The translations under genes were made by a program, and so were the position numbers. A stretch of 64,000 nt of DNA, taken from a virus. Its lineage: Duplodnaviria > Caudoviricetes. Shown here piece by piece: positions 1 to 64,000 of the stretch. Each line of letters opens with the position of its first letter. Position 1 is the first letter of the stretch. The DNA lies in IMG/VR virus record IMGVR_UViG_3300031555_010858, positions 32,001 to 96,000 of that record; one strand, written 5' to 3'. Under the pieces are notes generated by a model. It was not told where the DNA came from, made no database searches, and saw only the letters and a list, made by a program, of their open reading frames with translations.

Positions 1-623
1 GCTTGTAAATCATCATAAGCTTGAGCAAGACCATCCATTCCTTTATATGTTTTTCTTCCTCCAGTTTTAGCTCTATTTTTGGCTTCAGATAACACATAAT
101 AATCTAATGCTGCATTAGCTTTTTCTAATGTTATCTGTTCAGGTTTAAATATATCATTTAATTTAACTGGATTTAAATAATCTTCGATACAGAACATTTG
201 TTCTTTATTAGAACGTAGAACCGGTCCATTACAACCTTCATTTATAGAAGTGAACATACGTATACCTATTGCTTCATCACTATAAACGTTTATACAACTT
301 TCTACAAGATCTAAAACTGTAGGATTATTTTGATGTAATTTATTTATAAAACTAGGAATATCGTCTTCTTTTAAATCAAGAATAGGGTTTAATGATATAA
401 CCATCTGTACAAATGTGGCATATTGGCGTTCTAATGCTTTTACTACATTAGATGCAGTATCAACATTTATAGATCTTGATATTATAACTGGAAATTGTAA
501 TGTTGCAGCCGCACTTTGTTTAGCTATAGATCTCCCTTTAATATCATCTAGAGCCCATTTTACATCTTGTATAGATCCTTTGGCATCTTTTAAGAATTCT
601 CCTAATTCTCCAAATACAGTCAT
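1..623 (-). CDS. Putative virion structural protein (partial, runs off the left edge)
   Basis: Not in the ORF track. ATG at 623 with RBS AAAGGAG and a late promoter at 665-676. Reads MTVFGELGEFLKDAKGSIQDVKWALDDIKGRSIAKQSAAATLQFPVIISRS... and lies in the structural block. Confidence 0.7.
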   Translation of the reverse strand, partial: MTVFGELGEFLKDAKGSIQDVKWALDDIKGRSIAKQSAAATLQFPVIISRSINVDTASNVVKALERQYATFVQMVISLNPILDLKEDDIPSFINKLHQNNPTVLDLVESCINVYSDEAIGIRMFTSINEGCNGPVLRSNKEQMFCIEDYLNPVKLNDIFKPEQITLEKANAALDYYVLSEAKNRAKTGGRKTYKGMDGLAQAYDDLQ

Positions 624-664
624 TTATAACAACTCCTTTATTTTTAAAATTTCAATTTCACTTT

Positions 665-676
665 TACATAATTGTT
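665..676 (-). promoter_or_regulatory. Late (nvRNAP-type) promoter AACA-ATTATG-TA
   Basis: Matches the AR9 late consensus AACA-N6-TA; upstream of CDS 1-623. Confidence 0.7.
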
Positions 677-700
677 TTACCCATAGATAGTTAGCGGGAA

Positions 701-712
701 AACAACTAAGTA
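701..712 (+). promoter_or_regulatory. Late promoter AACA-ACTAAG-TA
   Basis: Consensus match upstream of the 752 CDS; divergent partner of 665-676. Confidence 0.7.
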
Positions 713-751
713 AGAGAACTTACTGAAATACTAAAGAAAGGAGAATTGAGT

Positions 752-2215: not shown

Positions 2216-2230
2216 AGAGAGGGTGAGACA

Positions 2231-4903: not shown

Positions 4904-4943
4904 ATAGTCAATAAAAAATACAATATGAAAGGAGACTACGTTT

Positions 4944-9083: not shown

Positions 9084-9133
9084 AATTACCTCCTTTCAGA
9101 GGAGAAATTAATCTCCTCTAAATAAAGTTATGA

Positions 9134-21100: not shown

Positions 21101-22456
21101 AGTTAGACGTTTTTCATAATTTTCTTTTAGTTTCTTATATGGAACGAATTCACCACTGTCATAATCATATATTCTTTCTTCCCTACCAGTTAGTGCACTT
21201 TCAATTCTTCTTAAATATGTAGGTATAACTTCTACTAAAGCTTTTTTACTTTCACCATCCCAAGTTATAGTACCTTTTTCATAATCACCTAACTTAACAT
21301 ATTTTGATACTTTTGGGTTTGTGCCTAATAATTTATTTATACCATTTAATAATGTATTATCATTATCTTCAAAAGAATTAATCCTAGCTAATAATGCAGG
21401 CATTACAGAATTAACTCTTTTATCTAATGCCCCAAGTGTAGATTTAAATGTTTCAGATAAGACACCTTGTACAACCATAGGAACTAATGTACCTATAGGA
21501 TTTTGTGCTATACCTGTTAAAACATCCATATTTAAAACTTGATCGACTATGTTACCTATAATAGGGTTTTCATCTTTAATATCAATTAAATTTTGTTTTA
21601 ATTGTTTTAAGTATTCATCTCCTTTAATTCCACCACTTGATGTGAACATATCAAGAACACGTTTTCTTTTTCGTTCTTTTCCTTCACTTTTACCAGCGTT
21701 CTCTATATTTTTTAATAAATCTATTGATTGACTGTAATATTCTGTAGCAGCTGCATGAAATTTAGCAGTAGAGTCGGAATTAAATTGAACCAATAATGCT
21801 AAATTATCATTAATAGATGTTAATGCATTAAGGAAAACACCGTTAGCTCTTTGAGTGAACATTGCTTTTTCTGTTTCTACAGCCATCTGTTGATCAGATA
21901 TAGCTACCATTGTATTAACTGTAGCCTCAGTACTAGCAGCTATTGATTTTGCTAATGGCATTGTATTTATTACAGCAACAGGTGGTCTACTACTAGAATT
22001 CGATGAGTCGTCTTCTGAAAATTGTGGTTCAGATGAAAAGTCGTCACCTTCGTCTATAAATTGAGGTCCACTATCATCACCAAACATATCACCAAAATCA
22101 TCGAAAGCATCATCAGTACCTTCAAGACGACCTTTATTATAAAAGTTACCAGTCTTAATATCATCAAAAGCATTTTTAACAATCATTTTGGATGCTTTTA
22201 TTTGTGGTATATTTTGGAACTGTTTATTGAAAGCATTTCTGATCCCATTATTATCACGAATATTGTTAATCATATCCATGCTATCTATAATCACTTTAGC
22301 ATTCCATTCTACTGTATCTGATGTATCTGGTAATAAAGATTTAACAACATCTAAAGAAGTAAATCCGAAACTCTTGGCAGCATTACGCAACCATTCGTTA
22401 TCGGGAACGGATTTTTTAATTCTATCGTTAATATTTCTTTTCGAATTTTTTGCCAT
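9134..22456 (-). CDS. Giant tape-measure protein / tail-associated multi-enzyme lysin (C39-like x2, NlpC/P60, SGNH, phage tail lysozyme)
   Basis: 4440 aa. Helical/glycine-rich TMP body with HAEG..VP.DGY.A.LH.GE motif. C-terminal YSQSD..GCGPTS..GHV..NDP (twice), DCSSFV..H..H, GDS..G..N..DGIH, and AGIMGNMEQES..GICQW. Confidence 0.85.
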   Translation of the reverse strand: MAKNSKRNINDRIKKSVPDNEWLRNAAKSFGFTSLDVVKSLLPDTSDTVEWNAKVIIDSMDMINNIRDNNGIRNAFNKQFQNIPQIKASKMIVKNAFDDIKTGNFYNKGRLEGTDDAFDDFGDMFGDDSGPQFIDEGDDFSSEPQFSEDDSSNSSSRPPVAVINTMPLAKSIAASTEATVNTMVAISDQQMAVETEKAMFTQRANGVFLNALTSINDNLALLVQFNSDSTAKFHAAATEYYSQSIDLLKNIENAGKSEGKERKRKRVLDMFTSSGGIKGDEYLKQLKQNLIDIKDENPIIGNIVDQVLNMDVLTGIAQNPIGTLVPMVVQGVLSETFKSTLGALDKRVNSVMPALLARINSFEDNDNTLLNGINKLLGTNPKVSKYVKLGDYEKGTITWDGESKKALVEVIPTYLRRIESALTGREERIYDYDSGEFVPYKKLKENYEKRLTSQYTSGYVNLETEMMDIVRKMNLNTKDLDQFKKDMEEYFTVMTKQGHRINHRKYKNLAGDEIDEFEDLQLFEGDPIRTEFMRKVLEGVNPTTLVESAAMGIQDSINAVNKFYDDIRFNTNKYGYSSLNNEVDENGKVKFQGLKPGGMRDEFGLSQLDYLRDIRSALINGIRVFPDNTKKGRSGIPNAELLQKEKDENTTVAKRKQREKDKKDKNDDIINKDKNRMNSIVAGSESEWAKYYNEHEKIEFNTDTKRGKFLQSVSDFNDKVDGHLFEILYGDEDIAKKYANKVIDYGRSGKPLVTLMTGMFGDTIKAFKSYFTGQGYVTSDGVKVEGRPDNMIDKVFGFFTGLKDKLTKGKDGEDGLIQKMTKDFMAGFEKFKVNLFGEKFLSENDAKETFQDLAQKVKERLPKALGYGLAGGMVKTFFSSRLGLLGNFLLPGGPMGAVLAGTAYGFLRQSETFNRVVFGEQGEDGERLGGIISKELQDKYAEYKGSIKSGIGLGVLGSLFLPGGPILSSVLGIGAVMTAKSDAFQEFLYGKDFANKDNKSLMDGAFGNMFKRLSGNENPELATFLGTAGLGVGIAQGVGLLPAFLLPGGPIVGALMGLAGGIAASSEKFQKFLLGEKDIDGQRYGGLLTKFKNWFDVSFTQPLKIRVQEMQDDMYGFLKGKLFDPIARSFEPVAQALKFMASDAFDLMKNIGTSIVESFKESIINPISEKLKWILSPIGWVVKSMGKLLTGVVTSPLKLIGAIGTVSEKYNEHYVIKKEKRRRAEEFDASYTGDEGLRYFERRKAAHMSKEEKEALINEKLAYRHGKSRKERKKEQEEKLNAEMQKRKAKTEEMRQQYEDDKEFAKKHGFKYASKKQKEKREQELKVKSAWIQEQSLVQAQETDEKVSKIADNVVHLSDYRDSVVDKLDEVNNTLKDGLNKLNNQGQNSDISKNINNDPDMDPANYGKVTDEHLAPIYDFIAKHEAKYGKNTSVPDTRDESDYGKVTDEHLATIHNFIDKYEEKHGTTLQESLDNLNEKIVSNKEPKAEEEKVEEPKVEQPKSQAKIVIENEETLGTKMKKGISKLLKNLRKKGRSHAEGLDEVPGDGYIAELHKGEMVVPEKPAGLLRGMMDKAGKGFKGLTDKLLGGNEEEKVEKEGGIDIDGDGDTDGEPSMLSGILKGLSSVVGGMGGLLGKVAGMGDGEARDRNDNALGMTDEEAERMKELEDRARYAQASRKDVDFVQNQIAARDKEKADRQWKEDLLTAIRGIGSLGAASLDSGMSLFDLIGAGFDSLGSSLGSILKSLAIPLGVFSLLKTWKDHKNSEEYIESRTDVDGSMIYDNTDHVVKKNLWSARKAIKNPIKKVIKKFTEPYVEGAKAIYNSEWGKKNLQPFGNRVKEHIQNAKNKFNFFGKPKAADNVVDFASAKAAKEGAESAAKNATTKGGAKVINFADAKLAKEATEKGSGKVLKKIAGEGVENLGDNKSVMSKLIKMTKTALTEIGQKVAEKFPKMGKFLSKADGIFAALLKNADMLVPKFAKKIGAVIGKVTAGASTAFITDLVFAAGDLISGFTAGNAGNLFGVSPENVDFKMRTISSVLQTVTNFNVLALISLVNEICSAVWNFNFLRNIAIWIYNAIPGGNNLGSRITAKEIDACTSIDQALMIMGVTDAEDIAYLKDGNGWKDFSKVPNEELHGVISATEQMELARLQYNLENETKLSSQAFIDKESKTLGSKIWGAITKPFQKKTDKQKLMKYQNKVNIYEEKLANSNNWFTRTWNGWRLNSNKKKMAKYQDKLNAPSNNYEVGEVVNPDDYASMTTPILNGRAADPAEVQAILDAHNLSGPEMGDQIITDAYGNSYDANGNFLGNAGYGDGPEMGDQIITDAYGNSYDANGNFLGNAGYGDGPEMGDIEYASTPAKKPSLLKKVGKTMIELMPGGKALTTGITAFSTLFGKDNKPEDYRMVPILDEYGNIVSYQSQLIDDTTELEGLNYEENIQMKPLDSNTQIIPQTDENGNIVSYTTVNKNKPTGLFGRIKNAFSNMFGIGQTTTTTGSSVDNSSSVTNNTGDTYTTNNTTEVDTSMFGALTEAINNLAGGDSSHLTKEGKVETSVLGAILNPINYVTKKLTEAGVNVSEAVTGKEMSPEKKNAMVAVMDMITNPIGFMMNKMNLNEKGESKKEANEPGFLTKTKDKAGNLWAGFKNQVFNEKPLLAQGLDSLAGGFDNATNWINNTDEAIKGKYKGAKKWVGDKWQEFNDLTAPLYEEGDRAGTKTAKLVKAGAVAVPYFGYKKFIEGTAVDKAAKKGIKAVKDTYAWGKGKWDDQKAWISSDWEEGDSAGVKFGKSYLKIEKTIKKKLSDIADSLSNWFKNTIQGIKDFYNETKTKIKNWWNDTIDSIGDWFKKKKEDLVNWYEMKTEELSKSWDGFVDSFKNFFGTIGEKLNGTWEAIKNFKMPKITWEGITLAAKDVWYFLEDFAREMVGLEPKKRGEEDTTTTNNTNTKNSTKKTEEKKDDKNIIQKGISFVSDTYNTFKQGHEAGGSGIDSTARKFRPKKYVASDTDFIKSTTTNNDNSNSNNTTNTSNKFVFYSQSDNRWANTKLGNKNMKDAGCGPTSLAMAVSQLTGEQITPDTIAELGKEHLPGYSKYSLFPSVANKLNMNYSEGYDGNFITSNLQRGVPVVLSGRTNASGTPYTSEGHVVTATHMMGNKVFINDPRGKEYSGYYPINALLTGLNKGMIVSPHNASNVTKFSSGQLANGWDAEPYKDIYAEELGMYGDVGEYNAIDDDKNLGKTGAGQITMADRVLSYARAFLNNTSKFSYSQPRRLQIDTNKSSSKGCGADCSSFVSHVLSRAGDVNIYGTTSQTFWDSVGTKVSEPQIGDVVCQQNHVGLYSGDGNYIHMSGRKAGIKESKAIQKGNNKHRGYKRVLKNPSQMVDPTVPNPNSFLGTVVGTSSGNPVGGGSGGPQASLDKALLIGDSLTVGMKSVLEGKYSGAKAMGKGGKWAKHWLESLDELPDAESVSTVIQWLGINGVHDNKRNISDSQTLLGKLKEKYAGKPIFNMRIFPTTKDYSYGNYTGEWWRGLSKEFNDAMGTWAGSNGVTQIDATNGFIQEDGFLDPSKAVDGIHFTTDGYKAVLSNIETAINSYNSNNSGSTATGGGAAPQVDILGQFSELEKIGTSMVGAIFNNKSVKEMYDNFYGNQVVTDATTTGSTPTDGSNPDISGISDTAQAVWQFFTGKGYSPAATAGIMGNMEQESGMRPDIIQGNGRGPAAGICQWENYNTKSARWKDMNAHAQSKGKDWKDLQSQLEFIDIELQGKSPGDNYTSTLLKKNWGGYEGFKAITDYKKATEAFEKSFERARKINWNNRYAGAKKYYDKFAGGAGTGPATATAAETAPSDGSIPDSMNGWKYYQQSDPKWAGDVGGSSVSRGGCGPTSHAMMLSTIFGKQITPLTMTRWGRKNGTWTGAMQWTMPEKVASAFGLNMTTLGADYNGVDKSVLEKVKESLKAGKPVVMTGKGTGPSGAAARQDTPFTPGGHVVLAVGVDGQGNVIINDPRGAGRTKAYTDKGILDVGVGLRGAWAFDTNGGSIPDGFQVDGDYTPTGGTTGGTTEGGGAATVAAPQLDIMGKFGELEKIGTSMVAGIFNNKSTKTMYDMLYNNVADTSGTTTTPADGSNPSQTVTGKGNFPKYALNDQQIKGIANILQHEQPGIEGRMAEASLMANLVDKTGDDKATVDNLIKKATGGWFAKGKDRFNNPGNPEQISIDAAKTVLVEGKRTLPRYVDEHDCFSDLTSVTNDGKSFKASDRSQYKPFVTKIKNRYGASGTFHSFPNAKSDPFYYTSEELRQKWGDDCYSPTLSGDAGKGDGNTYMVSPRQRTTPTSKVTYTKPVSNRPSPNINVDAQRKLDDINRKMNLSINNINATDPKAYAEILKLMMRELQAINNNTAETASKVGNIEIVGANEPIRHDQAGITTADIYQPANSPRQKNNSKGYNVARQIAGYQK
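15405..15608. repeat. 93-bp in-frame tandem repeat (about 2.2 copies) in the tape-measure gene
   Basis: Units start at 15405, 15498 and 15591; encodes GPEMGDQIITDAYGNSYDANGNFLGNAGYGD twice. Confidence 0.95.
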
Positions 22457-22491
22457 ATTTACTCTCCTTTCTATAAAGTTTCACTAGTCCT

Positions 22492-22503
22492 TAGAGTATT
22501 GTT
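22492..22503 (-). promoter_or_regulatory. Late promoter AACA-ATACTC-TA
   Basis: Consensus match upstream of the tape-measure operon. Confidence 0.7.
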
Positions 22504-22534
22504 TTTTATACAAATTCTAACAAATAATTATATC

Positions 22535-22572
22535 CGTAAAACATAAAATTTCGATACTATATTATATAAGTG
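22535..22572 (+). promoter_or_regulatory. Early (virion RNAP-type) promoter
   Basis: CGTAAAA..ATTTC..TATATTATATAAGTG, one of 7 copies. A late-type AACA-AATAAT-TA also lies at 22519-22530. Confidence 0.7.
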
Positions 22573-22613
22573 TAATACAAAAATAATATAAAAAATATTG
22601 GAGGTAATGATTT

Positions 22614-23204: not shown

Positions 23205-23229
23205 ATAAAAAAATTGGGAGGTAATTGGA

Positions 23230-23544
23230 TTGGATATTATATTTTTATATGACGCAGTAGAATCAAATTATTCAAATTTAGAGTGTTATATGTTATATGA
23301 TTTTACAAATGATGAACCAGTATATGATTTCAAATTAAAGAAATCTTTAGTAATGATAGATAAATCTAAGAAATTAATTTATTTTATGAATATGGAAACA
23401 GAAAATCATTATATAATAGAAAAACAATATTATTATAAAATAATACAAAAATTTATAAATGAATCAGAAAATTATGGTTGTAAAGGATTTACAGTTTATC
23501 CTGATTGTTCAGGTGGAGAAATATATTATAAATATAATAAATAG
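23230..23544 (+). CDS. Hypothetical protein
   Basis: 104 aa; TTG start with GGAGG RBS. Confidence 0.7.
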   Translation: MDIIFLYDAVESNYSNLECYMLYDFTNDEPVYDFKLKKSLVMIDKSKKLIYFMNMETENHYIIEKQYYYKIIQKFINESENYGCKGFTVYPDCSGGEIYYKYNK

Positions 23545-23557
23545 GAGGTAATGATTT

Positions 23558-25125: not shown

Positions 25126-25164
25126 CGAATAAAATTAAAATATAATATTTAGGAGGTATAGATT

Positions 25165-25956
25165 ATGAGAGTAAATGAATGGTTAGGAAATGAAAACCAA
25201 TTAGGTATAGATATATGGGAAAAGAAATATAAACAAGGGAATGAAACATTTGAAGAATGGTTAGATAGAGTAAGTGACGGGGATAAAGAAATCGCTCAAT
25301 TAATTAAAGATAAAAAATTCTTATTTGCTGGACGTATATTAGCAAATAGAGGAATGGATAAATTAGGTAAGAAAATAACATATTCAAACTGCTATGTTAT
25401 ACCAGCAGTAGAAGATTCGATAGAATCTATATATAAAACATGTTCGGATTTAGCTAGAACTTATAGTTATTCTGGAGGTTGTGGAGTAGATATAAGTAAA
25501 TTAAGACCTAGAGGAATGAAAGTAAATAATGCTTCTAATACAACTACAGGTGCAGTATCATTTATGGATACATTTAGTCAAGTTACAGGAACTATAGGGC
25601 AGAATGGTCGCCGTGGAGCTTTAATGCTTTCAATAAGTTGTGATCATCCAGATTTAGAAGAATTTATAGAAATCAAAAATGATCTAACTAGAGTAACAAA
25701 AGCAAATATATCTGTAAGAGTAAACGATGCTTTTATGTTTGCTGTTATAAATGATGAAGAATGGGAATTATCTTTTGAAACAGAACATGGGGATAAAATG
25801 AGTAAAATGGTTAATGCTAAAAAGTTATTTAGATTATTAAGTAAAAATAACTGGTCTATGGCAGAGCCAGGTATATTATTCTGGGATAGAATAGAAAAAT
25901 ATAATTTATTAAGTGAAGATCCAGAATTCGAATATGCTGGAGTTAATCCTTGTGCT
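25165..25956 (+). CDS. nrdJ: Class II (adenosylcobalamin-dependent) ribonucleotide reductase, exon 1
   Basis: FAGRIL, SNCYV, GGCGVDISKLRP, QNGRRGALM, EPGILF; ends at active-site VNPCA. Confidence 0.9.
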
Positions 25957-26665
25957 AGACCTTAATTGGCTCAAGTAAAAAATCGGGATGTATCGGTCAA
26001 CTAAACCGTAAGGTTAAAGTGGTAAGAGAGCCTAAGTCTTTTATTTATGATTCGTATAAAGTGCTAAGTATAACTATGAAAAGAATAACTTTTGATTTTA
26101 ATGTTTCAGATAGATATGAATATTATGTAACTGAAAATGGAGAAGTATACAAAGTAGATATGAGAAATGGTAAAACGACAGAATGTTATTACCATATAGC
26201 TCATGGTTACAAAAGAATTAGAGTTACAGACATAGATACGAATACACGAAGATATCTTAGAGTTCATAGGCTTGTTGCTATGTATTATGTTACAAATCCA
26301 TATCCAGATATTTATGATCAAGTCAATCATAAAGACGGTGATAAGCTTAATAATAATTATACAAATTTGGAATGGTGTAATGGTAGTATAAACACACAAC
26401 ATGCTTACGATAATAATTTAGTAAAGGATAGAGGTGGATGGATTAGCACTCCATACGAAGCCAGATATAAATAATAAATAAAAGATATGGTAATACCGAG
26501 GGCAGTAATATCTAATATTGTCCGTAGAGCATAGGAGATGAGCGTTATTATGAAAGCAATAATTCTCCCACGAGCTCCCGACACTCTTTAAGAGTGAAAA
26601 TATATGCCGACCTTACAGGAAACTGTAAGAGCTAGGGGATAAAAAGCCCTTAGGATAACAAAGTG
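25957..26665 (+). mobile_element. Group I self-splicing intron (709 nt) in nrdJ
   Basis: Removal rejoins NPCA/EEPL in frame. Exon 1 ends in U pairing with G of the IGS (CTTGTGCT/GGCTCAAG); intron ends in G; P7-like GCATA/TATGC and terminal hairpins present. Confidence 0.9.
26076..26474 (+). CDS. Intron-encoded HNH homing endonuclease
   Basis: VHRLVA..VNHKDGDKLNN..NLEW..N..HA motif. Start uncertain (ATG 26076 or GTG 26019). Confidence 0.85.
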   Translation: MKRITFDFNVSDRYEYYVTENGEVYKVDMRNGKTTECYYHIAHGYKRIRVTDIDTNTRRYLRVHRLVAMYYVTNPYPDIYDQVNHKDGDKLNNNYTNLEWCNGSINTQHAYDNNLVKDRGGWISTPYEARYK

Positions 26666-28123
26666 GAGGAACCTCTTCCTGCAGGTGGAAGTTGTTTATT
26701 AGGTTCAATAAACTTAGCTGCATACGTTAAAAATAATGAGTTTGATTCAGAAGAATTTTTAAATGATATACATGTAATAGTTAAAGGTATGAATGATGTT
26801 TTAGATCAAGGATTACCATTACATCCTTTACAAGTTCAAAGAGATTCTGTAAGAGATTGGAGACAAATAGGAATAGGTGTAATGGGTATAGCAGATATGT
26901 TAATTAAATTAGGATTAAAATATGACACAATTGAAGCTCAAAGATTCTGTGATCATTTAGGATTTATAATGGCTAATGAAGTAATATATGCAAGTGCGTT
27001 ATTAGCTAAAGAATTCGGACCTTATCCTAAATATAATGATGATGCTGTATTAAAATCTTCATTCTTAACAATGAATACAACTACAGATACGTATAGATTA
27101 GTTGAAGAATATGGTTTAAGAAATAGTCAATTATTAACAATAGCACCATGTGGAACATTATCTACAATGTTAGGTATAAGTGGTGGTATAGAACCGATAT
27201 TCAGTTTATCGTATACAAGAAAAACAGAATCGTTACATGGTGAAGATAGATATTATAAAGTATTCACACCAATAGCCGATGAGTTTATGAAGAAATTCGG
27301 TTTAACAGAAGAGGAACAATTACCAGAATTCTTTGTAACTGCACAAAATATAAATCCTTATAAACGTGTTGAAATGCAAGGCGTATGGCAAAAACATATA
27401 GATGCAAGTATATCTTCAACATTAAATCTTCCAAACGAAACAACTGTAGAAGAAGTTGAAAACCTATATATACATGCATGGAATGAAGGATTAAAAGGAA
27501 TGACAATATTTAGAGATGGTTGTGATAGAGCTGCAATATTAACAACAAGTAAACCTAAAGAAGAAGAAAAATCTGTAGAAGTTGAAGAAAATAAAAATGA
27601 AATACCTAGAGGTGTAGTAGTACCTACAAGTGATGATGTTATAGGGTTAAAGAAAAAATTATCAGGTGGATGTGGATCTTTACATCTACAAGTATATTTC
27701 GATAGAAACACAGGTAAAATGACAGAAGTATTTATAAATAAAGGAGGAACAGGTGGATGTAATAGTAATCTAAATGCTTTATCTAGAATGATATCTATAA
27801 CGTTAAGAGCAGGTGTAGATGTTAAAGATGTAGCAGATCAATTAGCATCAACTATAAACTGTCCTTCATTTGCAAGTTCAAGAGCTAAAGGAATAATATT
27901 ATCACCAGGTTCTTCATGTGCTGGTGCAGTAGGTAAAGCTTTAATAGAGTTAAATAAAGAATTCCAAGTAATATTCAAAGCTATGAAAGAAATAGACGAA
28001 GATCATGAAGAAGAATCTGATATTATGGGCTTAAAAGAATGTCCAGAATGTAAAGAAAAGACATTACAAATGTCAGGTGGTTGTATGCAATGCACAAATT
28101 GTGGTTATAGTAAATGTGATTAA
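26666..28123 (+). CDS. nrdJ: Class II ribonucleotide reductase, exon 2 (with C-terminal TSCPD-like and Zn-ribbon region)
   Basis: EEPL..GSCLLGSINL, RQIGIGVMG, TIAPCGT, SISSTLN, GLKGMTIFRDG; C-terminal CPEC..GGC..C..CGYSKC. Confidence 0.9.
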   Translation, partial: EEPLPAGGSCLLGSINLAAYVKNNEFDSEEFLNDIHVIVKGMNDVLDQGLPLHPLQVQRDSVRDWRQIGIGVMGIADMLIKLGLKYDTIEAQRFCDHLGFIMANEVIYASALLAKEFGPYPKYNDDAVLKSSFLTMNTTTDTYRLVEEYGLRNSQLLTIAPCGTLSTMLGISGGIEPIFSLSYTRKTESLHGEDRYYKVFTPIADEFMKKFGLTEEEQLPEFFVTAQNINPYKRVEMQGVWQKHIDASISSTLNLPNETTVEEVENLYIHAWNEGLKGMTIFRDGCDRAAILTTSKPKEEEKSVEVEENKNEIPRGVVVPTSDDVIGLKKKLSGGCGSLHLQVYFDRNTGKMTEVFINKGGTGGCNSNLNALSRMISITLRAGVDVKDVADQLASTINCPSFASSRAKGIILSPGSSCAGAVGKALIELNKEFQVIFKAMKEIDEDHEEESDIMGLKECPECKEKTLQMSGGCMQCTNCGYSKCD

Positions 28124-29187: not shown

Positions 29188-29210
29188 ATTTTCATTCTCC
29201 TTTTATTATT

Positions 29211-29579: not shown

Positions 29580-29622
29580 AATATCACTCCTTTATTATTT
29601 TCTATTAAGTTATTTACAATAA

Positions 29623-29634: not shown

Positions 29635-29641
29635 TCGTTAA

Positions 29642-29680
29642 TGTAAAAAGGTAATATTTCAAAACTATATTATATAAGTG
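29642..29680 (+). promoter_or_regulatory. Early promoter
   Basis: TGTAAAAAGGTAATATTTCAAAACTATATTATATAAGTG. Confidence 0.75.
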
Positions 29681-29738
29681 AATGATAATAAATATATTAT
29701 CATTCATAAAAATATTATGAATCTAGGGGGTACAAATT

Positions 29739-30518: not shown

Positions 30519-30579
30519 GTAACATCTGTAGAAATACAGTTAATATAAAAAAATATAAAATTAATGGAGGTAACTGTTT

Positions 30580-34500: not shown

Positions 34501-35661
34501 ACTTGATACATCATTAACTGGAACTTCTACTTCTTCTGATTTCATATTTAATATTTCTTCAAGAGTCTTTCCTCTTACAGCGATTTCTAACTGTTTTTCT
34601 CTAAGTAATTCATCACGTTTGTTTGATGCAGCAGTTTTAGCTATATTTTTATTATTAGCCATAACTATTTCTTTCATAAGTTTTTCGTCTTTTTCTATTT
34701 CTTTCTTAACATCATTTTCATCCATTTCTTGGTTTTTATCTAAAACTTTTTCAACTTCAGCTTCTATTTTATTTTTAACATCTTCAGGAACACCTGCATC
34801 ACCAGTAGCACCAAAAACATATTTATCTATTAAGGATTTACTTATATCAGCTTTATTTTGTGCTAATATAGAATCTATTTCAGCAGATACACTTCCTTCT
34901 TCAGGATCTTCTCTATTCAGCATTTTAAATAATTCTTTTCTGTATAATGCTGCAATATTAGCTTTATTTGCATCAGTATTCATAGTTCTCTTACACTCAG
35001 CAGGGTTAACTCTTAATGTCCAACCTGTTTTAGAAGTTATTAAAAAATCTATATCACCTAATTTAAAAAATTCTTCGGGTTCTCTTTTCATTAAGATATA
35101 TAAATAAGTCATAGGGTTTACAGCTTCTCCCCTATTGTTTAAATCATTAACTAAATCATTACTAAACTCTTCAACGTTCATTATCATTGATTTCATAGGA
35201 TATTTATCTAATGGTAATTCACCTATATATCGCATGATAAATTCCCAATACTCTTTAGGTTTAACTATTCTTGTTATCATAGATGAGTTAGTACTAAATG
35301 CTGTATTTGCATACGAAAGTTCAAAGAATACGTTAAATCCCATATTAAGTTTACCTTCATTTATACCATTTAAATAAGGTAATTCTGCACGTATTTGATC
35401 ATAGTAAGCTTGACGTCCTTGTAATCTATTTTCTCTAACTAACTTACTTCTTATCTTGATTTGTTCTAATCTTTTAGCATAACACATAGTAACCACGTTA
35501 TTATATTCTAGATTAATAGTACCTAATTTAAGTTTTAAGTTTTTAGTATCCATTGTATTCATTATAACTAATGAACCATATCTTTTATTCTTTTGGTCAT
35601 ATTGTATAACAGGTCTTAATCTAGTTCTTTTTAATAATGGTAATTTATTACTAGTAATCAT
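31519..35661 (-). CDS. Phage multisubunit RNA polymerase beta-like subunit, probably virion RNAP (phiKZ gp178-like)
   Basis: SSPDANVGVNR, DDSVRTTMSCRQ, TYEDS, GVGDKIVFFSALKSIVG..IDAVLS..S..ARG match RpoB regions. A late promoter fits a packaged RNAP. Confidence 0.85.
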   Translation of the reverse strand: MITSNKLPLLKRTRLRPVIQYDQKNKRYGSLVIMNTMDTKNLKLKLGTINLEYNNVVTMCYAKRLEQIKIRSKLVRENRLQGRQAYYDQIRAELPYLNGINEGKLNMGFNVFFELSYANTAFSTNSSMITRIVKPKEYWEFIMRYIGELPLDKYPMKSMIMNVEEFSNDLVNDLNNRGEAVNPMTYLYILMKREPEEFFKLGDIDFLITSKTGWTLRVNPAECKRTMNTDANKANIAALYRKELFKMLNREDPEEGSVSAEIDSILAQNKADISKSLIDKYVFGATGDAGVPEDVKNKIEAEVEKVLDKNQEMDENDVKKEIEKDEKLMKEIVMANNKNIAKTAASNKRDELLREKQLEIAVRGKTLEEILNMKSEEVEVPVNDVSSHVDTINKNVTDIRYPNIDKAYVEQLMEKDMVSMFTDMNNKSIKVFVRNISVEDTSDISNYKETWTIELEDELRVRHKVVFDVPKIIEGRYLYLGGNRKYINNQQLLLPIVKVDPDTVQLVSNYNKIFIRRYGEKVSQTNEKLKKALSEEIKGIRVQRGKFDSENEGFVTTIDYDDLSKLFKEVNINGTRIIFDQKEIRHILLDRNIKGLEGRLDVELLPLGIKGNEYYCIDLKSDNVVIINAQGKTQSTGKTLVEFILSLSPALSAKVGEQSAGKKYMYSRATIMSKQVPIVLLLCYFEGIDGFLKRADIKHYFSDTRPRLAPDENCIQFQDGYLIYTNKPIATSLLMNGFIDIPTKNYNYSDLNDKFVYQSMFETMFGRRNIANAFDNFQDNFIDPMTLDVLKRLNLPTDLTGMVLYGNELLADNQYTHEITVSRIRCAEVVNAIVYKNVASAYEKYKETANFNNPTKISIERGAIIKDIMKQQTVEDYSELNPIYEQQNLRKCLRKGPSGCNLAQAYTEEQRSYHPGMAGVFTLSSSPDANVGVNRFLTLEPPITDPRGFIDNKALQGKVTEYNDANLFGVAELLTPGCASGDDSVRTTMSCRQSTHCVAVAKSSPVLVSNGAERVMPYHCTKDWVFVAKDNGEVKEYDEKLGLLIVEYKNGEHDAIDINRIAKNGAGGFNISKHMAVNVKKGDKFKKNDILAYEDKFFSENSAFGNRFNVGSLQKVALLSSSLTYEDSSYISKKLSREMATEVVMQKQAVLGPNTTVDYMVKIGDKVQNGDELIRFEKSFSEDVINQLLFNVGDEFKEEIIMSGKEKIKSKYSGVIEDIKVFCTVELDELSPSLRQIVNQYYSKIKARKKLLEKYDDNGSVVKCNMLFNEPTGKVEAKDGKFRGAIVNEGVLIEFYIKIHDEVGVGDKIVFFSALKSIVGSIIPEGQEAYTLFRPDEGIDAVLSCNSLIARGVTSAPKMIMANKLLVELSRSLEEIYKRK

Positions 35662-35698
35662 TAAATCTCACCCTTTCGTTATTTACTCTTTATTCACT

Positions 35699-35710
35699 TA
35701 CAAAATTGTT
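35699..35710 (-). promoter_or_regulatory. Late promoter AACA-ATTTTG-TA
   Basis: Consensus match upstream of the beta-like gene. Confidence 0.7.
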
Positions 35711-35733
35711 TTTGCCTTGAAAAATCGACGGTT

Positions 35734-35844
35734 AAAACCCCTATGCCAATCATAGGCATAGGGTATATGTCAAAACAATAACAATAAGAGGTAAGATGTT
35801 TATGTTTCAAGTAATATGATGATTCCGATACCATCATTTTACTT
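35734..35844 (-). ncRNA. Candidate ~110-nt late small RNA with anti-Shine-Dalgarno seed
   Basis: Late promoter AACA-AATTAG-TA at 35855-35844; 5' hairpin begins exactly at +1; single-stranded CAUAAACAUCUUACCUCUUAUUGUUAUUG; terminator CCCTATGCC/GGCATAGGG plus U tail; no RBS-led ORF. Confidence 0.6.
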
Positions 35845-35915
35845 ACTAATTTGTTATACTAAATTAAATTTTATAAAAACCTTATTATAATTTATCAACA
35901 TACCAACAACTTCTT

Positions 35916-36013
35916 AATGCGATAGCAGCATTAAGAATAAAACGAACCTCCTTAAGAGGTGAGTGAAGAAGTTGTTAAAATAAAAATATGGTTGGGAAGT
36001 TACGTTTATTTTT
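35916..36013 (+). ncRNA. Candidate ~100-nt late small RNA containing ACCUCCUUA
   Basis: Late promoter AACA-ACTTCT-TA at 35905-35916; hairpin at +1; ACCTC-cttaa-GAGGT hairpin. The 3' end is uncertain. Confidence 0.35.
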
Positions 36014-36017
36014 GCTG

Positions 36018-36056
36018 TGTAAAAAGGTTAAATTTCAATTATATATTATAAAAGTG
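36018..36056 (+). promoter_or_regulatory. Early promoter
   Basis: TGTAAAAAGGTTAAATTTCAATTATATATTATAAAAGTG. Confidence 0.8.
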
Positions 36057-36094
36057 AATATTTCATTAATGATTTAAATCATTAATGAAATATT
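36057..36094. repeat. Perfect 38-bp palindrome at the 5' end of the RNAP-subunit transcript
   Basis: AATATTTCATTAATGATTT|AAATCATTAATGAAATATT. Confidence 0.9.
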
Positions 36095-36140
36095 AATTAA
36101 GCAATAACAATAAATATATATTAATAGGAGGTAAATGTCT

Positions 36141-52648: not shown

Positions 52649-52687
52649 AAAATACATAGAGGACTTTTCCTCTATGTATTTTCTTTT
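52649..52687 (+). terminator. Intrinsic terminator
   Basis: AAAATACATAGAGGA-cttt-TCCTCTATGTATTTT. Confidence 0.8.
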
Positions 52688-52688
52688 A

Positions 52689-52727
52689 TGTAAAACATGT
52701 ATTTTTCAATTATATATTATATCGAGG
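52689..52727 (+). promoter_or_regulatory. Early promoter
   Basis: TGTAAAACATGTATTTTTCAATTATATATTATATCGAGG. Confidence 0.7.
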
Positions 52728-52755
52728 AATACAAGAAAATAAGGAGGTTGGTAAT

Positions 52756-52992
52756 ATGAAAAAATCTACATTAATAACAATTGCTGATATAGTAAATAAC
52801 ATTGATAACTCTGCAAGAGATTTATATGAAATGTTGGATTTATTAAACGTAACAGAAAATGAGAAAGAAAGAATAACTGATGCAATTATGATTACAGCAG
52901 AAAAAATAGCACAATTAAGACGTGCTAAAATAAGTGAATTAGATGAGTTTGTAGATGTTAATTATATAGAAACACATATTAATAGATATTAG
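52756..52992 (+). CDS. Hypothetical protein (early)
   Basis: 78 aa; AAGGAGG RBS. Confidence 0.75.
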   Translation: MKKSTLITIADIVNNIDNSARDLYEMLDLLNVTENEKERITDAIMITAEKIAQLRRAKISELDEFVDVNYIETHINRY

Positions 52993-53004
52993 GAGGTAAT
53001 GTAT

Positions 53005-53568: not shown

Positions 53569-53583
53569 AAGGAGAGTGATACA

Positions 53584-54300: not shown

Positions 54301-54322
54301 AAACAAGGAAGGAGTGTAAAAG

Positions 54323-55162: not shown

Positions 55163-55438
55163 AGGGAGAAGAATAAAAGTGGAGGGTACGGGAGTATGTG
55201 TATATACTACATTATATATATGCTCGCTAGATTGCATCTCGCCACCGAGGCTTAGTAGGTTTATTCTCAACTAATCACACTTTTGGCTAATAGTGTGGTG
55301 TACCGTATACTGATGTAGGAGTGAGCGGTATTTGTTAATAGTGTTACTTATCAATAGTGGATAAGGTAAGATAGCATTATTAACTAAATAAAATATGTGT
55401 ATATAGTGAATTCATATCACTATATACACATATTTTTT
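55163..55438 (+). ncRNA. Candidate ~275-nt highly structured late ncRNA
   Basis: Late promoter AACA-ATTATG-TA at 55152-55163; GC-enriched; several G-U-rich stems; strong terminal hairpin plus U run; no long ORF. Confidence 0.65.
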
Positions 55439-55552
55439 CCGTACTGTTTAATTAAATAAAAAATATATTTTATCAAATTTTATTGGAGGTAAAATTCTAA
55501 TGATCCCAGAGAGATCTTAGAGTAGTCCTATGACTACTTATAGATATGTTTG

Positions 55553-55591
55553 TGTAAATTGGTGTTATTTTGATTATATATTATAATAGTG
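55553..55591 (+). promoter_or_regulatory. Early promoter
   Basis: TGTAAATTGGTGTTATTTTGATTATATATTATAATAGTG. Confidence 0.7.
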
Positions 55592-55615
55592 AATAAATAT
55601 AAGGAGGTATTTAAT

Positions 55616-56195: not shown

Positions 56196-56220
56196 TGAAT
56201 AAAAAATAGGAGGTAGATTT

Positions 56221-56970
56221 ATGAGAAAATCAGTAGATCATTTAGGAGAAGAGTCTTTTAATAAGAAGGGAACTGTCATGAAAATAATAGAATATATTAA
56301 TAATAGAAAAGTGTTAGTTGAATTTCAAGATGAATACAAATATCAAACTTATACAAATTATCAAGCATTTATAAAAGGAGAAGTTAAAAATGTTTATGAC
56401 AAATCTGTATATGGAGTAGGGTATATAGGTGAAGGACAGTATTCACATAAAACCCATCCTCATAGTTATAATGTATGGAAACATATGATAGCTCGTTGTT
56501 ATGATAAAGTAACTGCAACATCAAATCCTTCATATATCAATTGTTATGTATCTGATGATTGGCTTTGTTTTCAAAATTTCGCAAGTTGGTTCGATGAAAA
56601 TTATTATGAAATACCAGGCGAAATTATGCATTTGGATAAAGATATTTTAATTAAAGGTAATTTACAATATTCATCTGAAACGTGTACATTCGTACCACAA
56701 AGGATAAATAGTTTATTTACAAAAAATGATATGCGTCGAGGTAATTTACCTATCGGTTGTTATTATCATGGTAAAAGTATATATGTATCATGTAATACAC
56801 TCGATGGTAGAGTCCAATTAGGTAGATATGATACGACAATAAAAGCTTTTGAGGCTTATAAAATGTTTAAAGAAAAATATATTCAAAAAGTTGCAGATGA
56901 ATATAGAGATATTATACCAAACAATCTTTATGAGGCTATGTATAATTATAAAGTTGAAATTAATGATTAG
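56221..56970 (+). CDS. Free-standing HNH-type homing endonuclease
   Basis: W..M..RCY, W..FQNF..W, LDKDIL..GN..YS..TC.FVP..IN; AP2-like C-terminal tail. Confidence 0.8.
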   Translation: MRKSVDHLGEESFNKKGTVMKIIEYINNRKVLVEFQDEYKYQTYTNYQAFIKGEVKNVYDKSVYGVGYIGEGQYSHKTHPHSYNVWKHMIARCYDKVTATSNPSYINCYVSDDWLCFQNFASWFDENYYEIPGEIMHLDKDILIKGNLQYSSETCTFVPQRINSLFTKNDMRRGNLPIGCYYHGKSIYVSCNTLDGRVQLGRYDTTIKAFEAYKMFKEKYIQKVADEYRDIIPNNLYEAMYNYKVEIND

Positions 56971-56983
56971 GAGGTAATAAAAT

Positions 56984-58244: not shown

Positions 58245-58251
58245 ACCCTGC

Positions 58252-58290
58252 TGTAAAAAGGTATAATTTCAATTATATATTATAAAAGTG
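58252..58290 (+). promoter_or_regulatory. Early promoter
   Basis: TGTAAAAAGGTATAATTTCAATTATATATTATAAAAGTG. Confidence 0.8.
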
Positions 58291-58323
58291 ATTAATAAAA
58301 TAAAAATAAATAGGAGGTAACTT

Positions 58324-63161: not shown

Positions 63162-63176
63162 TATCTACATGTGTAA
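63145..63176 (+). terminator. Hairpin at the end of the kinase-like gene, overlapping the next early promoter
   Basis: TTACACATGTAGA-ataata-TCTACATGTGTAA; no U tail. Confidence 0.5.
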
Positions 63177-63210
63177 TAGGTAAATATTTTAATTATATAT
63201 AATAAAAGTG
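63172..63210 (+). promoter_or_regulatory. Early promoter
   Basis: TGTAATAGGTAAATATTTTAATTATATATAATAAAAGTG. Confidence 0.7.
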
Positions 63211-63234
63211 AATATAATATTAGGAGGTAACTGT

Positions 63235-64000
63235 ATGAGTACATGTATAGCTATATTTGAAAATGAATTAGAAAGAGTTGTAGAGGAATTAGATAATACA
63301 AAATTTAAATATAAGTTCTTATTCGATTCAGATGAAAAATATAAAACTATAGAGAGATATAATTTAGATGTGTTACAAGACGCATTATTATTTTCAGGAT
63401 TAGGTAATAAGATAAATTCTAATAGATATAAAAAACCAGGTCCAGAAATGGAAAAAGCTTGGAGTGAATTTGTACATGACGTATTCAGTGAAGGTAGACA
63501 AATAGCTATAGTTAATGATTTTATAGATTATCCCGATTTAGTTATAGTATTTCCAACAATATTCCAAGATACAACACAGAGAGTTAATACAGTAACATTA
63601 ACCGATGATATATTAGATTATATAGTCAAAACATTTATAAAACAATTCTCACAAGAAGAAGGGATGACGATAATAAGATGGGATGAATATGGTTTAAATA
63701 TTAACGAATTAGAACCAGAATTTAATAGAAAAATGTTTATATCAAAACAAAGACAGATAAAAGCGAATGCAAGAGCAGAACATAAGATTGAAGCATTAAG
63801 AGTATTTAGAGAAGCATTTAAGTTTAGAATGATAACTTATTATACAAAACTAAGAGAATTTGGAATGGATGATATAATGAGAAAGTTAGATGAATTAGGA
63901 TTCTTAGATGAAAGATTTGATTCAGAAGTTTATATATATGAAGAAGAAGCAAGACGATTATTAGCAAAAAGATTATGTGCAATGTCATATAAAGCAGATA
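63235..64000 (+). CDS. Hypothetical early protein (partial, runs off the right edge)
   Basis: AGGAGG RBS; MSTCIAIFENELERVVEELDN... stays open to the window end; missing from the ORF track. Confidence 0.75.
   Translation, partial: MSTCIAIFENELERVVEELDNTKFKYKFLFDSDEKYKTIERYNLDVLQDALLFSGLGNKINSNRYKKPGPEMEKAWSEFVHDVFSEGRQIAIVNDFIDYPDLVIVFPTIFQDTTQRVNTVTLTDDILDYIVKTFIKQFSQEEGMTIIRWDEYGLNINELEPEFNRKMFISKQRQIKANARAEHKIEALRVFREAFKFRMITYYTKLREFGMDDIMRKLDELGFLDERFDSEVYIYEEEARRLLAKRLCAMSYKAD

Follow-up and report, generated by a model that had tools for sequence, protein, structure and literature searches.

Why should the genes of one phage begin with two different forms of Shine-Dalgarno (SD) sequence, and could a small RNA (sRNA) encoded among them tell the two apart? 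In AR9/PBS1-like phages an injected virion RNA polymerase (vRNAP) transcribes the early genes and a non-virion polymerase (nvRNAP) the late genes, the latter, in AR9, from promoters at which deoxyuridine is recognised in the template strand of the uracil DNA. To our knowledge, temporal control in jumbo phages with two such polymerases is understood at the promoter level only, how translation of the abundant early mRNAs is stopped has not been explained, and few phage-encoded regulatory RNAs have been described. The two SD dialects reported here, together with a predicted sRNA complementary to one of them, suggest an RNA-based switch that may turn early genes off late in infection.

The 64-kb window, the whole stretch of DNA analysed, is part of a 203-kb jumbo phage of the AR9/PBS1 kind, as established by tblastn and synteny against AR9; megablast against known phages returned no near-identical one. 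The genetic code is standard, with ORFs covering 94% under table 11, and a tRNA scan found no tRNA. As in AR9/PBS1, both vRNAP and nvRNAP are split multisubunit enzymes; TATATTAT as the core of early promoters, AACA-N6-TA as the late motif and the gene order are shared as well. The AR9 nvRNAP genes g226 (encoding the promoter-specificity subunit gp226), g154 and g270 were matched by tblastn, and the nvRNAP beta subunits, which are present in relatives, were not found in this 82%-complete record. Among sequencing runs, fragments of the phage or of close relatives were found in three from the bovine gut, as contigs that are probably DNA, and the phage was found in no RNA run.

Early promoters take the form of a 38-nt motif present in 16 near-identical copies, all on the plus strand. 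Its core is common to AR9's annotated early promoters (PMC5312081), and it stands upstream of orthologues of AR9 early-promoter genes, namely those for nvRNAP beta' C, the gp226-like subunit and RNase H. Copies in the window are the following:

36014..36060, plus strand: early (virion-RNAP-type) promoter upstream of nvRNAP beta' C (nhmmer E=4e-11; core TATATTAT; the AR9 orthologue g154 likewise has an early promoter)
22533..22578, plus strand: early promoter copy upstream of 22614
29636..29685, plus strand: early promoter copy upstream of 29739
52684..52732, plus strand: early promoter copy upstream of 52756
55550..55596, plus strand: early promoter copy upstream of 55616 (RNase H; AR9 RNase H g241 likewise has an early promoter)
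58246..58293, plus strand: early promoter copy upstream of 58324
63168..63214, plus strand: early promoter copy upstream of 63235

The late consensus of AR9 is AACA-N6-TA/G, with transcription starting at the last base (PMC5312081). Of 103 upstream gaps, 49 contain a matching motif, AACAA-N5-TA, in the sense orientation, where about 2% would be expected.

The preliminary description of this DNA had assigned AAAGGAG or AAAGGG to ten gene starts and GGAGGTA to thirteen, and had named two exceptions. We could read the motif in every one of these leaders and likewise recovered the exceptions, 9083 (GAAAGGAGGTAA) and 38542 (AAAGGAGT); in the other 23 leaders the motif lies 5-10 nt upstream of the start codon. 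Three leaders absent from that list, 54323 of the first type and 44670 and 52756 of the second, were added. Both types have a GGAG core about 9 nt from the start and differ only in their flanks, the first being extended on the 5' side as (G)AAAGGAG and the second on the 3' side as (T)AGGAGGTAA(T). The 5'-extended SDs in the window, including the leader with both extensions, are:

633..638, minus strand: 5'-extended SD (AAAGGAGT) of start 623, orthologue of AR9 minor virion protein g214
738..743, plus strand: 5'-extended SD (GAAAGGAGA) of start 752, virion structural protein
4929..4934, plus strand: 5'-extended SD (GAAAGGAGA) of start 4944, with a late promoter at -52
22464..22469, minus strand: 5'-extended SD (GAAAGGAGA) of start 22456, a 4440-aa tape-measure-like protein
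29197..29202, minus strand: 5'-extended SD of start 29187
29587..29592, minus strand: 5'-extended SD of start 29579
35672..35676, minus strand: 5'-extended SD variant (GAAAGGGTGAG) of start 35661, virion RNAP beta
38528..38533, plus strand: 5'-extended SD of start 38542, an exception, the gene lying within an early-promoter unit
43157..43162, plus strand: 5'-extended SD of start 43172, the gene preceding the endolysin
45047..45052, plus strand: 5'-extended SD of start 45064, a 2525-aa protein, with a late promoter at -54
53569..53574, plus strand: 5'-extended SD of start 53584
54309..54314, plus strand: 5'-extended SD of start 54323 (added here)
9088..9093, minus strand: SD with both extensions (GAAAGGAGGTAA) of start 9083, virion protein, an exception

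Those of the 3'-extended type are:

22600..22605, plus strand: 3'-extended SD (GGAGGTAA) of start 22614, early promoter
23217..23222, plus strand: 3'-extended SD of start 23230
23544..23549, plus strand: 3'-extended SD of start 23558
25152..25157, plus strand: 3'-extended SD (GGAGGTAT) of start 25165, ribonucleotide reductase exon 1
30566..30571, plus strand: 3'-extended SD of start 30580
36127..36132, plus strand: 3'-extended SD (TAGGAGGTAAATG) of start 36141, nvRNAP beta' C
41018..41023, plus strand: 3'-extended SD (GGAGGTAAGAT) of start 41032, nuclease (phrog_13933)
44657..44662, plus strand: 3'-extended SD (GGAGGTTT) of start 44670 (added here)
52743..52748, plus strand: 3'-extended SD (GGAGGTTG) of start 52756, early promoter (added here)
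52992..52997, plus strand: 3'-extended SD of start 53005
55603..55608, plus strand: 3'-extended SD of start 55616, RNase H, early promoter
56209..56214, plus strand: 3'-extended SD of start 56221, HNH endonuclease
56970..56975, plus strand: 3'-extended SD of start 56984, dCMP deaminase
58313..58318, plus strand: 3'-extended SD of start 58324, early promoter
63223..63228, plus strand: 3'-extended SD of start 63235, early promoter

GGAG cores with a 5' AA extension seldom have a 3' G as well (OR 0.07, p=8e-10), a strong anti-correlation. By base complementarity, the 5' extension is predicted to pair with the extreme 3' end of 16S rRNA, and the trailing AA of the 3' extension is predicted to stay unpaired with the canonical 16S tail.

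The choice of type follows promoter class. Within the window, the ratio of 5'- to 3'-extended leaders is 0:6 for genes next to early promoters and 8:4 for genes next to late ones (p=0.013). The split persists when SDs are tabulated by promoter class over the whole genome, where the ratios are 0:8 and 30:15 (p=5.5e-4). By gene function, the corresponding ratios are 12:3 for structural and 6:13 for non-structural genes (p=0.007), the classes being taken mainly from AR9 orthology, since the PHROGs library left most small proteins of the window unannotated. The earlier proposal of two dialects that track gene class thus stands, with the correction that early versus late promoter divides them better than structural versus non-structural function; GGAGGT is also common on late-promoter non-structural genes. 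About one third of late-promoter genes, mostly non-structural, carry GGAGGT, and 32 of 159 genes fit neither class, so that the split is a tendency and not a rule. Two related genomes are divided in the same direction (p=0.03 and p=1e-4), and in the two related clades orthologues share their SD type (14/6/1/25, p=2e-6) at about 60% protein identity. No such split was found in a relative more distant than these two clades, and AR9 has none by promoter class (p=0.76) or by virion membership. AA follows GGAGGT in 39-57% of cases in the sRNA-bearing phages versus 13-15% in AR9 and the 34% relative. A trivial source of this motif would be an upstream gene whose stop codon supplies the TAA of GGAGGTAA; this was rejected, the motif being equally frequent at gaps of at least 30 nt.

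Shared descent could also produce such a pattern. If early cassettes of promoter and leader had been duplicated, their common TAGGAGGTAAT leaders would call for no selection on the SD flank, and the early promoters are indeed near-identical over 38 nt, with several leaders identical over more than 20 nt (e.g. those of the record genes starting at 111161, 181135 and 184425). We regard this as very improbable: orthologues with about 60% protein identity retain their SD type even though intergenic sequence can otherwise not be aligned at that distance, and the motif is equally frequent on late-promoter and operon-internal genes.

It is possible, though in our view unlikely, that the two types reflect the tuning of ribosome binding only. 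Over-long SD:anti-SD duplexes would be avoided by extending GGAG either 5' or 3', early and virion genes would differ in their initiation-rate demands, and the sRNA, while real, would act on a few specific targets (for example, as negative feedback on the nvRNAP beta' subunits) or on unrelated ones. The anti-correlation between AA on the left and G on the right is found, in weaker form, in the sRNA-less AR9 (OR 0.39) and in the 34% relative (OR 0.19), so two registers can arise without the sRNA; AR9 also avoids further canonical pairing after a full GGAGG core, with GA in 0 of 34 cases. Tuning leaves unexplained, however, why AA(T) after GGAGGT reaches 39-57% only in the sRNA-bearing clade and why AR9 lacks a promoter-class split. 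A difference in strength is not evident either, because the two types have equal predicted 16S rRNA duplex energy and equal spacing (9.1 vs 8.8 nt).

The candidate sRNA lies on the minus strand upstream of the vRNAP beta gene. Its 22-nt core, proposed in the preliminary description, has a single exact match, with 0 expected in shuffles, and belongs to a unit of about 110 nt laid out as late promoter, 5' hairpin, unpaired core and putative terminator hairpin:

35844..35855, minus strand: late-type promoter AACAAATTAGTA of the sRNA unit, fitting the AR9 late consensus and kept in all homologues; predicted RNA start at the last A (35844)
35811..35842, minus strand: sRNA 5' hairpin (predicted fold)
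35783..35804, minus strand: 22-nt sRNA core
35786..35794, minus strand: invariant seed TTACCTCTT (UUACCUCUU), complementary to A(G/A)GAGGUAA
35738..35763, minus strand: putative sRNA terminator hairpin, with TTTT directly behind it and then another T-run that reaches 35720
35699..35710, minus strand: vRNAP beta's own late promoter AACAATTTTGTA, downstream of the sRNA terminator, with an equivalent motif in relatives

The unit was found upstream of the vRNAP beta gene in 8 of 8 clade contigs, and since vRNAP beta has its own late promoter past the terminator, the sRNA would be a separate transcription unit. The 9-nt seed UUACCUCUU is identical in 6 of 6 aligned homologues from three clades and is predicted to be unpaired (probability 0.98, 0.68 and 0.78). 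The 5' hairpin is formed from different sequence in the 88% and 82% clades and is absent in the 62% clade. Of the nine consensus pairs of the terminator stem, four show compensatory double changes across homologues, the MAFFT alignment of the six sRNAs contributing only its terminator pairs because it misaligns the 62%-clade seed; the U-tract directly after the stem is short. Two coding readings were rejected: a 47-codon minus-strand ORF in the unit is broken by four indels in the 88% relative, and a plus-strand SD with a mini-ORF shrinks from 7 to 3 to 0 codons across clades, being absent in the 62% clade. We conclude that the unit is a predicted late-promoter-driven non-coding RNA, kept in every clade relative examined.

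Searches for the unit elsewhere delimit its distribution. Rfam gave no match at gathering score over the window and, at E<=1, only two chance microRNA-model matches in 35600-36200. In the viral collection, the exact 15-mer core has 70 matches, all by chance save that in the 88% relative; the promoter-gap-seed pattern has 50, real only in six contigs of the known clade; and a search with the N-terminal 400 aa of vRNAP beta found no relatives. The unit is absent from the 34% relative, and AR9 has none upstream of its vRNAP beta gene. A single 266-nt bovine-gut contig spans the unit, an occurrence that has no bearing on transcription.

Should the stretch 35734-35855 not act in trans, it could serve vRNAP beta in cis, as a leader, an attenuator or an insulator made up of promoter and terminator, or it could have arisen as an inverted copy of an early-gene leader that has since decayed, with the SD complementarity as a by-product. 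Its position directly upstream of vRNAP beta is fixed in all relatives, and its plus strand resembles a 3'-type leader and has a 12-mer, CAATAACAATAA, in common with the beta' C leader at a distance of 320 nt, consistent with a duplication origin. We nevertheless give such readings little credence. The 9-mer is invariant while its flanks, the hairpin sequences and even the architecture vary across clades, which argues for selection on the single-stranded motif itself. The vRNAP beta gene has a late promoter of its own downstream of the terminator, and the seed pairs poorly, by sequence comparison, with the gene's own SD, GAAAGGGTGAG or GAAAGGAGTT; in the 62% clade, no start codon follows the plus-strand SD-like motif.

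The fit to the 3'-extended leaders asserted in the preliminary description is borne out by prediction. Pairing of the core is selective for the GGAGGTAA type (median predicted duplex -18.1 vs -12.9 kcal/mol, p=7e-10); part of this fit is built in, since UUACCUC will pair with GGAGGUAA in whatever RNA it occurs. The poor fit to AAAGGAG is equally clear, an 8-nt seed match being present in 0 of 122 such leaders. In the three sRNA-bearing genomes, such matches number 8/15, 13/24 and 15/36 among early-proximal leaders (42-54%) and 6/46, 8/52 and 9/49 among late-proximal ones (13-18%). Among all leaders, matches make up 24-28% in sRNA-bearing phages versus 7% in AR9 and the 34% relative; since the three genomes are related, the co-occurrence of sRNA and GGAGGTAA excess counts in essence as a single evolutionary observation. 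The sRNA flanks and the class consensus leader showed no covariation: at -2, T is favoured even opposite a U of the sRNA, and at +8 the leaders have T in place of the G that would pair with the sRNA of two clades.

This last feature bears on the possibility that the host ribosome itself differs. If the host 16S rRNA carried the variant C1533U, with the tail GGAUUACCUCCUU, then GGAGGTAAT would be a perfectly complementary strong SD and the seed would merely resemble the host anti-SD. The variant exists at genuine 16S 3' ends of Fibrobacter intestinalis, Mycoplasmopsis adleri, Saccharibacteria (including ruminant isolates), Pelagibacterales and Rickettsiales, and the class consensus, GGAGGTAAT with 56-57% T at +8, is a closer match to the variant tail than to the sRNA of two clades. 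We still consider this explanation improbable. Among SDs with a weak core, the canonical GGTGA(T) outnumbers GGTAA (12:7, 18:13 and 25:8) although A is far commoner than G in leaders, an AR9-like signature of C at that position; the lineages with the variant are implausible as hosts, the phage code being standard; the sole Lachnospiraceae match lies outside the 16S gene; and a 9-bp SD would run contrary to the AR9-type avoidance of over-long SDs. The 3' end of the host 16S rRNA would discriminate: GGAUCACCUCC would favour the link to the sRNA, GGAUUACCUCC would account for the dialect without it, and with a canonical GGAUCACCUCCUU tail the C1533U reading falls.

As to individual targets, the leader of 36141 (nvRNAP beta' C) is the second-best predicted sRNA target of the genome, at -24.6 kcal/mol, and when 63 orthologue triplets are ranked by how well their predicted pairing is conserved, three nvRNAP subunit leaders fall within the top 8 (hypergeometric p=0.0014). 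For the best conserved target the combined-rank p is 0.002, which is no longer significant after correction for 63 tests. That the nvRNAP leaders are the best conserved predicted targets, and that extended complementarity is seen only to the beta' C leader (the 12-mer CAATAACAATAA plus the SD block), also accords with an sRNA of few targets, as the tuning explanation supposes.

On these grounds we propose, tentatively and at somewhat less than an even chance, that a late sRNA pairs with 3'-extended leaders and lowers early translation. The GGAG core is extended gene by gene in one of two ways, a choice kept between orthologues; genes directly after early promoters are of the 3' type, and the 5' type is found mainly in late-promoter units, mostly for virion proteins. 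The sRNA, probably transcribed late from its own promoter, may use its anti-SD-like seed to base-pair with those translation-initiation regions whose SD is 3'-extended, the mRNAs for nvRNAP beta' N and beta' C being the best conserved candidates, and this pairing might reduce their translation late in infection. Late mRNAs of the AAAGGAG type would escape because the seed mismatches them. A more far-reaching version appears distinctly unlikely to us, namely that the late sRNA is a mimic of the ribosomal anti-SD differing by one C-to-U change, which would bind the GGAGGUAA leaders of the early regulon but leave the AAAGGAG leaders of virion genes alone, and would shut off early translation class-wide and direct ribosomes to late mRNAs as an RNA-only counterpart of T4 RegB/RegA, with a co-evolved SD dialect and with targets that include subunits of the very polymerase transcribing it. 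The class-wide redirection of ribosomes and a possible effect on host mRNAs, both already put forward in the preliminary description, are speculative, and silencing about 25% of all leaders by a single sRNA, with roughly 40 candidate mRNAs, would need very high abundance.

The proposed switch has partial parallels. RsaE/RoxS-type sRNAs of Firmicutes act in trans through an unpaired C-rich motif that pairs with the G-rich SDs of multiple mRNAs; they belong to different families and are chromosomal, and we know of no case in which they discriminate between two SD flank types of one genome. The cia-dependent csRNAs of Streptococcus combine a 5' stem-loop, an unpaired anti-SD often accompanied by an anti-AUG (CAU), and a terminator stem-loop, and have been proposed to keep several mRNAs from initiating translation (PMC3091779). 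The phage RNA similarly carries CAU ... UUACCUCUU between two hairpins. In contrast to the csRNAs, to which it has no sequence or covariance-model similarity (Rfam), it is placed under a phage late promoter and not under a host two-component system, and its seed contains CCUCU, not CCUCC. The CAU, present 5' of the seed in three clade members and missing in the 62% clade, is spaced unlike the 8-9-nt SD-AUG distance usual in the targets.

In logic, the proposed switch is the same as that of phage T4, where the RegB endoribonuclease, with the RegA repressor, inactivates early mRNAs at the SD, and resistance is seen in most middle mRNAs and in every late one (PMC3014915). There, too, early and late leaders differ in SD context, RegB discriminating by the sequence 3' of GGAG (consensus GGAGRAYARAA), with the stated purpose of freeing the translation apparatus for later transcripts (PMC3014915). 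The T4 agents are proteins, RegB being made early, whereas here a late RNA is proposed as the agent. A search of the 82%-complete record for RegB (PF10715) gave no homologue, and it gave none in the control genomes either. AR9, for all its likeness to our phage, has no SD split, no GGAGGTAA excess and no sRNA unit upstream of vRNAP beta.

Two elements that can be tested together emerge from our analysis, a seed of 9 nt carried by a conserved RNA of about 110 nt and an SD flank specific to the clade that is present on about one quarter of leaders overall and on half of those of early genes, with AAAGGAG leaders and relatives without the sRNA as natural negative controls. If the link between them fails, there remain a gene-specific SD register kept across orthologues and a new family of phage non-coding RNA. 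If it is true, SD flanks can encode membership of a post-transcriptional regulon, and this would be a compact means of switching gene sets in Gram-positive hosts.

The virus record (202,636 bp, 28% G+C, estimated 82% complete) resembles the AR9/PBS1 jumbo phages in gene content. The 684-aa protein starting at 36141 is the beta' C piece of the non-virion RNA polymerase (nvRNAP), and its top annotated relatives are Bacillus phages AR9 and PBS1 and Yersinia phage phiR1-37, at ~28% identity. A tblastn comparison of the record's 159 gene calls with AR9 (KU878088) gave 48 matches in long syntenic runs, including both split polymerases, virion proteins, gyrase, helicase and RNase H, and assigned the tape-measure protein to a 4440-aa gene. 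PHROGs contributed virion proteins, ribonucleotide reductase, dCMP deaminase, nuclease and endolysin. For comparison we used two genomes with 82% and 62% beta' C identity and one 34% relative. The ribonucleotide reductase large subunit (window 25165-28123) is encoded in two segments, 25165-25965 and 26663-28123. Between them sits an HNH endonuclease gene (26076-26474) lacking a Shine-Dalgarno sequence (SD); the interruption resembles an intron that carries a homing endonuclease, such as several AR9 genes have. The string CCCAGCAATTAAAGAGGTTT, repeated in non-coding stretches (record 106690 and 201425, and several sites in the relatives and AR9), probably belongs to the group I introns of these phages. 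The vRNAP (virion RNA polymerase) beta gene of a relative is split over both ends of contig IMGVR_UViG_3300029852_000001 (our sequence labels L146 / L148), which suggests a circularly permuted or complete assembly. Fragments 88-99% identical to window 34500-37500 occur in contigs of three bovine-gut runs, and the ruminant gut is the probable habitat.

The leaders of this phage carry two types of SD, extended either 5' (AAAGGAG, first type) or 3' (GGAGGT(A), second type), and every leader listed in the preliminary description contains the motif ascribed to it. Gene starts were picked by codon statistics and duplex energy to the whole 16S tail, a procedure neutral between the types; the genome-wide tally was 56 GGAGGT, 14 GGAGG, 37 AAGGAG not followed by G, 20 weaker AAAGG/AAGGA and 32 other. 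The distance from GGAG to the start (9.1 vs 8.8 nt) and the predicted 16S affinity (-12.1 vs -11.6 kcal/mol, p=0.47) are the same for both. Rather than two separate sites, the types are alternative flanks on a single core. A leader extended by AA on the 5' side tends not to be extended by G on the 3' side (OR 0.07, p=8e-10). The same exclusion, weaker, is seen in AR9 (OR 0.39) and the 34% relative (OR 0.19), so some of the bimodality comes from the usual avoidance of SDs that are too long. Across the record, TAG stop codons are unusually common (30%) and TGA rare (5%); the TAG is often that of TAGGAGG in operon-internal leaders.

Promoters were classed by two motifs. The early motif, 38 nt (TGTAAAAAGGTnAAATTTCAATTATATATTATAAAAGTG), occurs in 15-16 copies in the record, all on the plus strand; of the 39 early promoters in the 62% relative, 38 share one strand. 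The motif has its core TATATTAT in common with the annotated early promoters of AR9 (published consensus AAATATATATTAT-N6-G; PMC5312081) and precedes orthologues of AR9 early-promoter genes (nvRNAP beta' C, a gp226-like subunit, RNase H). The AR9 late motif, AACA-N6-TA/G, with transcription starting at its last base (PMC5312081), takes the form AACAA-N5-TA in this phage, where 49 of 103 upstream gaps hold it in the sense direction (~2% expected) and 10 in antisense. The sequence TTTTATGTTCCA(A/G)AT repeatedly abuts, on the 5' side, AACAAAT-type late motifs of several GGAGGT-type genes and may define a subset of the late (middle?) promoters:

Record 55190-55230 (window about 23190): TTTTATGTTCCA(A/G)AT site
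Record 192600: same
Record 199500: same

The proposed division of SD types between structural and non-structural genes holds as an association: with genes classed through their AR9 orthologues, the counts (first:second type) are 12:3 for virion, packaging and vRNAP genes and 6:13 for the others (p=0.007). The sharper divide is early versus late promoter, and GGAGGT also stands before many late-promoter non-structural genes. Genome-wide, the ratio is 0:8 for first genes after early promoters and 30:15 for those after late motifs (p=5.5e-4), and four further first genes with both promoter kinds are all of the second type; the window alone gives 0:6 vs 8:4 (p=0.013). The promoter split recurs in the 82% and 62% relatives (p=0.03 and 1e-4), the structural split more weakly (p=0.066 and 0.034). 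Neither split is seen in AR9 (p=0.76 and 1.0), and the 34% relative shows the reverse direction. Among 63 orthologue triplets, 23 have the second type and 13 the first in all three genomes; orthologues in this genome and the 62% relative agree in type (14/6/1/25, p=2e-6). The SD type is thus a trait of the individual gene that this clade has conserved.

The core of the small RNA (sRNA) proposed in the preliminary description was located at 35783-35804, minus strand, inside a 473-nt gap flanked by the vRNAP beta gene (minus strand, start 35661) on one side and the nvRNAP beta' C gene (plus strand) on the other. Along the minus strand, a late motif is followed by a hairpin, an unpaired stretch, a strong hairpin, T-runs and the beta gene's late motif:

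35855-35844, minus: late motif of the sRNA unit, AACAAATTAGTA (motif match)
35763-35738, minus: strong hairpin of the sRNA unit, then T-runs
35710-35699, minus: the vRNAP beta gene's own late motif

This arrangement recurs upstream of the vRNAP beta gene in the 82% and 62% clades and in an 88% relative, there with 75% nucleotide identity. Hairpin sequences vary among clades, and the 5' hairpin is missing in the 62% clade, while TTACCTCTT is invariant; the stem of the putative terminator has compensatory changes at four pairs. The seed is predicted to be unpaired with probabilities of 0.98, 0.68 and 0.78. A coding reading as a 47-codon ORF was ruled out, the frame being wrecked by indels in the 88% relative; an opposite-strand mini-ORF disappears in the 62% clade. 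Scanning the viral collection for its pattern recovered the unit solely from eight contigs, all of this clade; Rfam gave no match, and AR9 and the 34% relative have no comparable unit upstream of their beta genes. The unit would be a new phage non-coding RNA, conserved within the clade.

Between the sRNA promoter and the beta' C early promoter lies a second conserved structured element, with a late-type motif, AACAACTTCTTA (plus strand), on its 5' side:

Window 35851-36012, plus: second structured element
Record 22415-22574 (about 1500-1660 of our sequence L002): 84% identical copy
2709-2990 of our sequence L014: homologue

The outer pairing of this element, CAACAACTTCTTAA ... AAGAAGTTGTT, is invariant and surrounds two hairpins. 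In the inner one (ACCTCCTTAAGAGGT in the window) the sequence differs between copies with compensation, so what is conserved is the structure and not the anti-SD-like sequence.

That the seed fits one SD type was borne out: the predicted sRNA duplex is -18.1 kcal/mol for the second type vs -12.9 for the first (p=7e-10; same in both relatives), and none of 122 AAAGGAG leaders has an 8-nt seed match. UUACCUCUU is complementary to AAGAGGUAA, and to AGGAGGUAA through one G:U pair; against AAAGGAG a central A-C mismatch remains. Some of this fit holds by construction. In the three sRNA-bearing genomes, which are one lineage, seed matches occur in 53%, 54% and 42% of early-proximal leaders vs 13%, 15% and 18% of late-proximal ones, and in 24-28% of all leaders vs 7% in AR9 and the 34% relative. 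AA follows GGAGGT in 54%, 57% and 39% of cases, vs 13% and 15% in AR9 and the 34% relative, an excess independent of upstream stop codons. Alternatively, the host 16S might end in GGAUUACCUCC, making GGAGGTAAT a perfect SD. Such a tail does exist, among others in Fibrobacter, Mycoplasmopsis and Saccharibacteria, but the carriers known so far are unlikely hosts, and the weak-core SDs of these phages favour canonical GGTGA over GGTAA (12:7, 18:13 and 25:8), as in AR9. In a scan of genome contigs the tail variant GGAUUACCUCCUU (C1533U, E. coli numbering) was widespread (Pelagibacterales, Saccharibacteria, Rickettsiales, some Mycoplasmopsis and Fibrobacter) and was verified at 16S 3' ends in three of four loci checked. 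As for pairing with the sRNA, the leaders of three nvRNAP subunits come within the top 8 when 63 orthologue groups are ranked by conserved predicted pairing, and a continuous 16-bp duplex is predicted for the beta' N leader of the 62% clade; class consensus and sRNA flanks showed no covariation.

The observation that prompted this analysis is confirmed and extended, and its interpretation is partly supported. In architecture the sRNA unit resembles the streptococcal csRNAs, which present unpaired anti-SD and anti-AUG sequences between two stem-loops (PMC3091779). In logic the proposed shut-off resembles T4 RegB/RegA, which inactivate early mRNAs at the SD, recognising the sequence 3' of GGAG, and leave late mRNAs intact (PMC3014915); a search of the record (82% complete) for a RegB homologue gave no hit. 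Selective silencing of one SD type by the sRNA would be a new variant of these known kinds of regulation, based on a putative conserved phage RNA.
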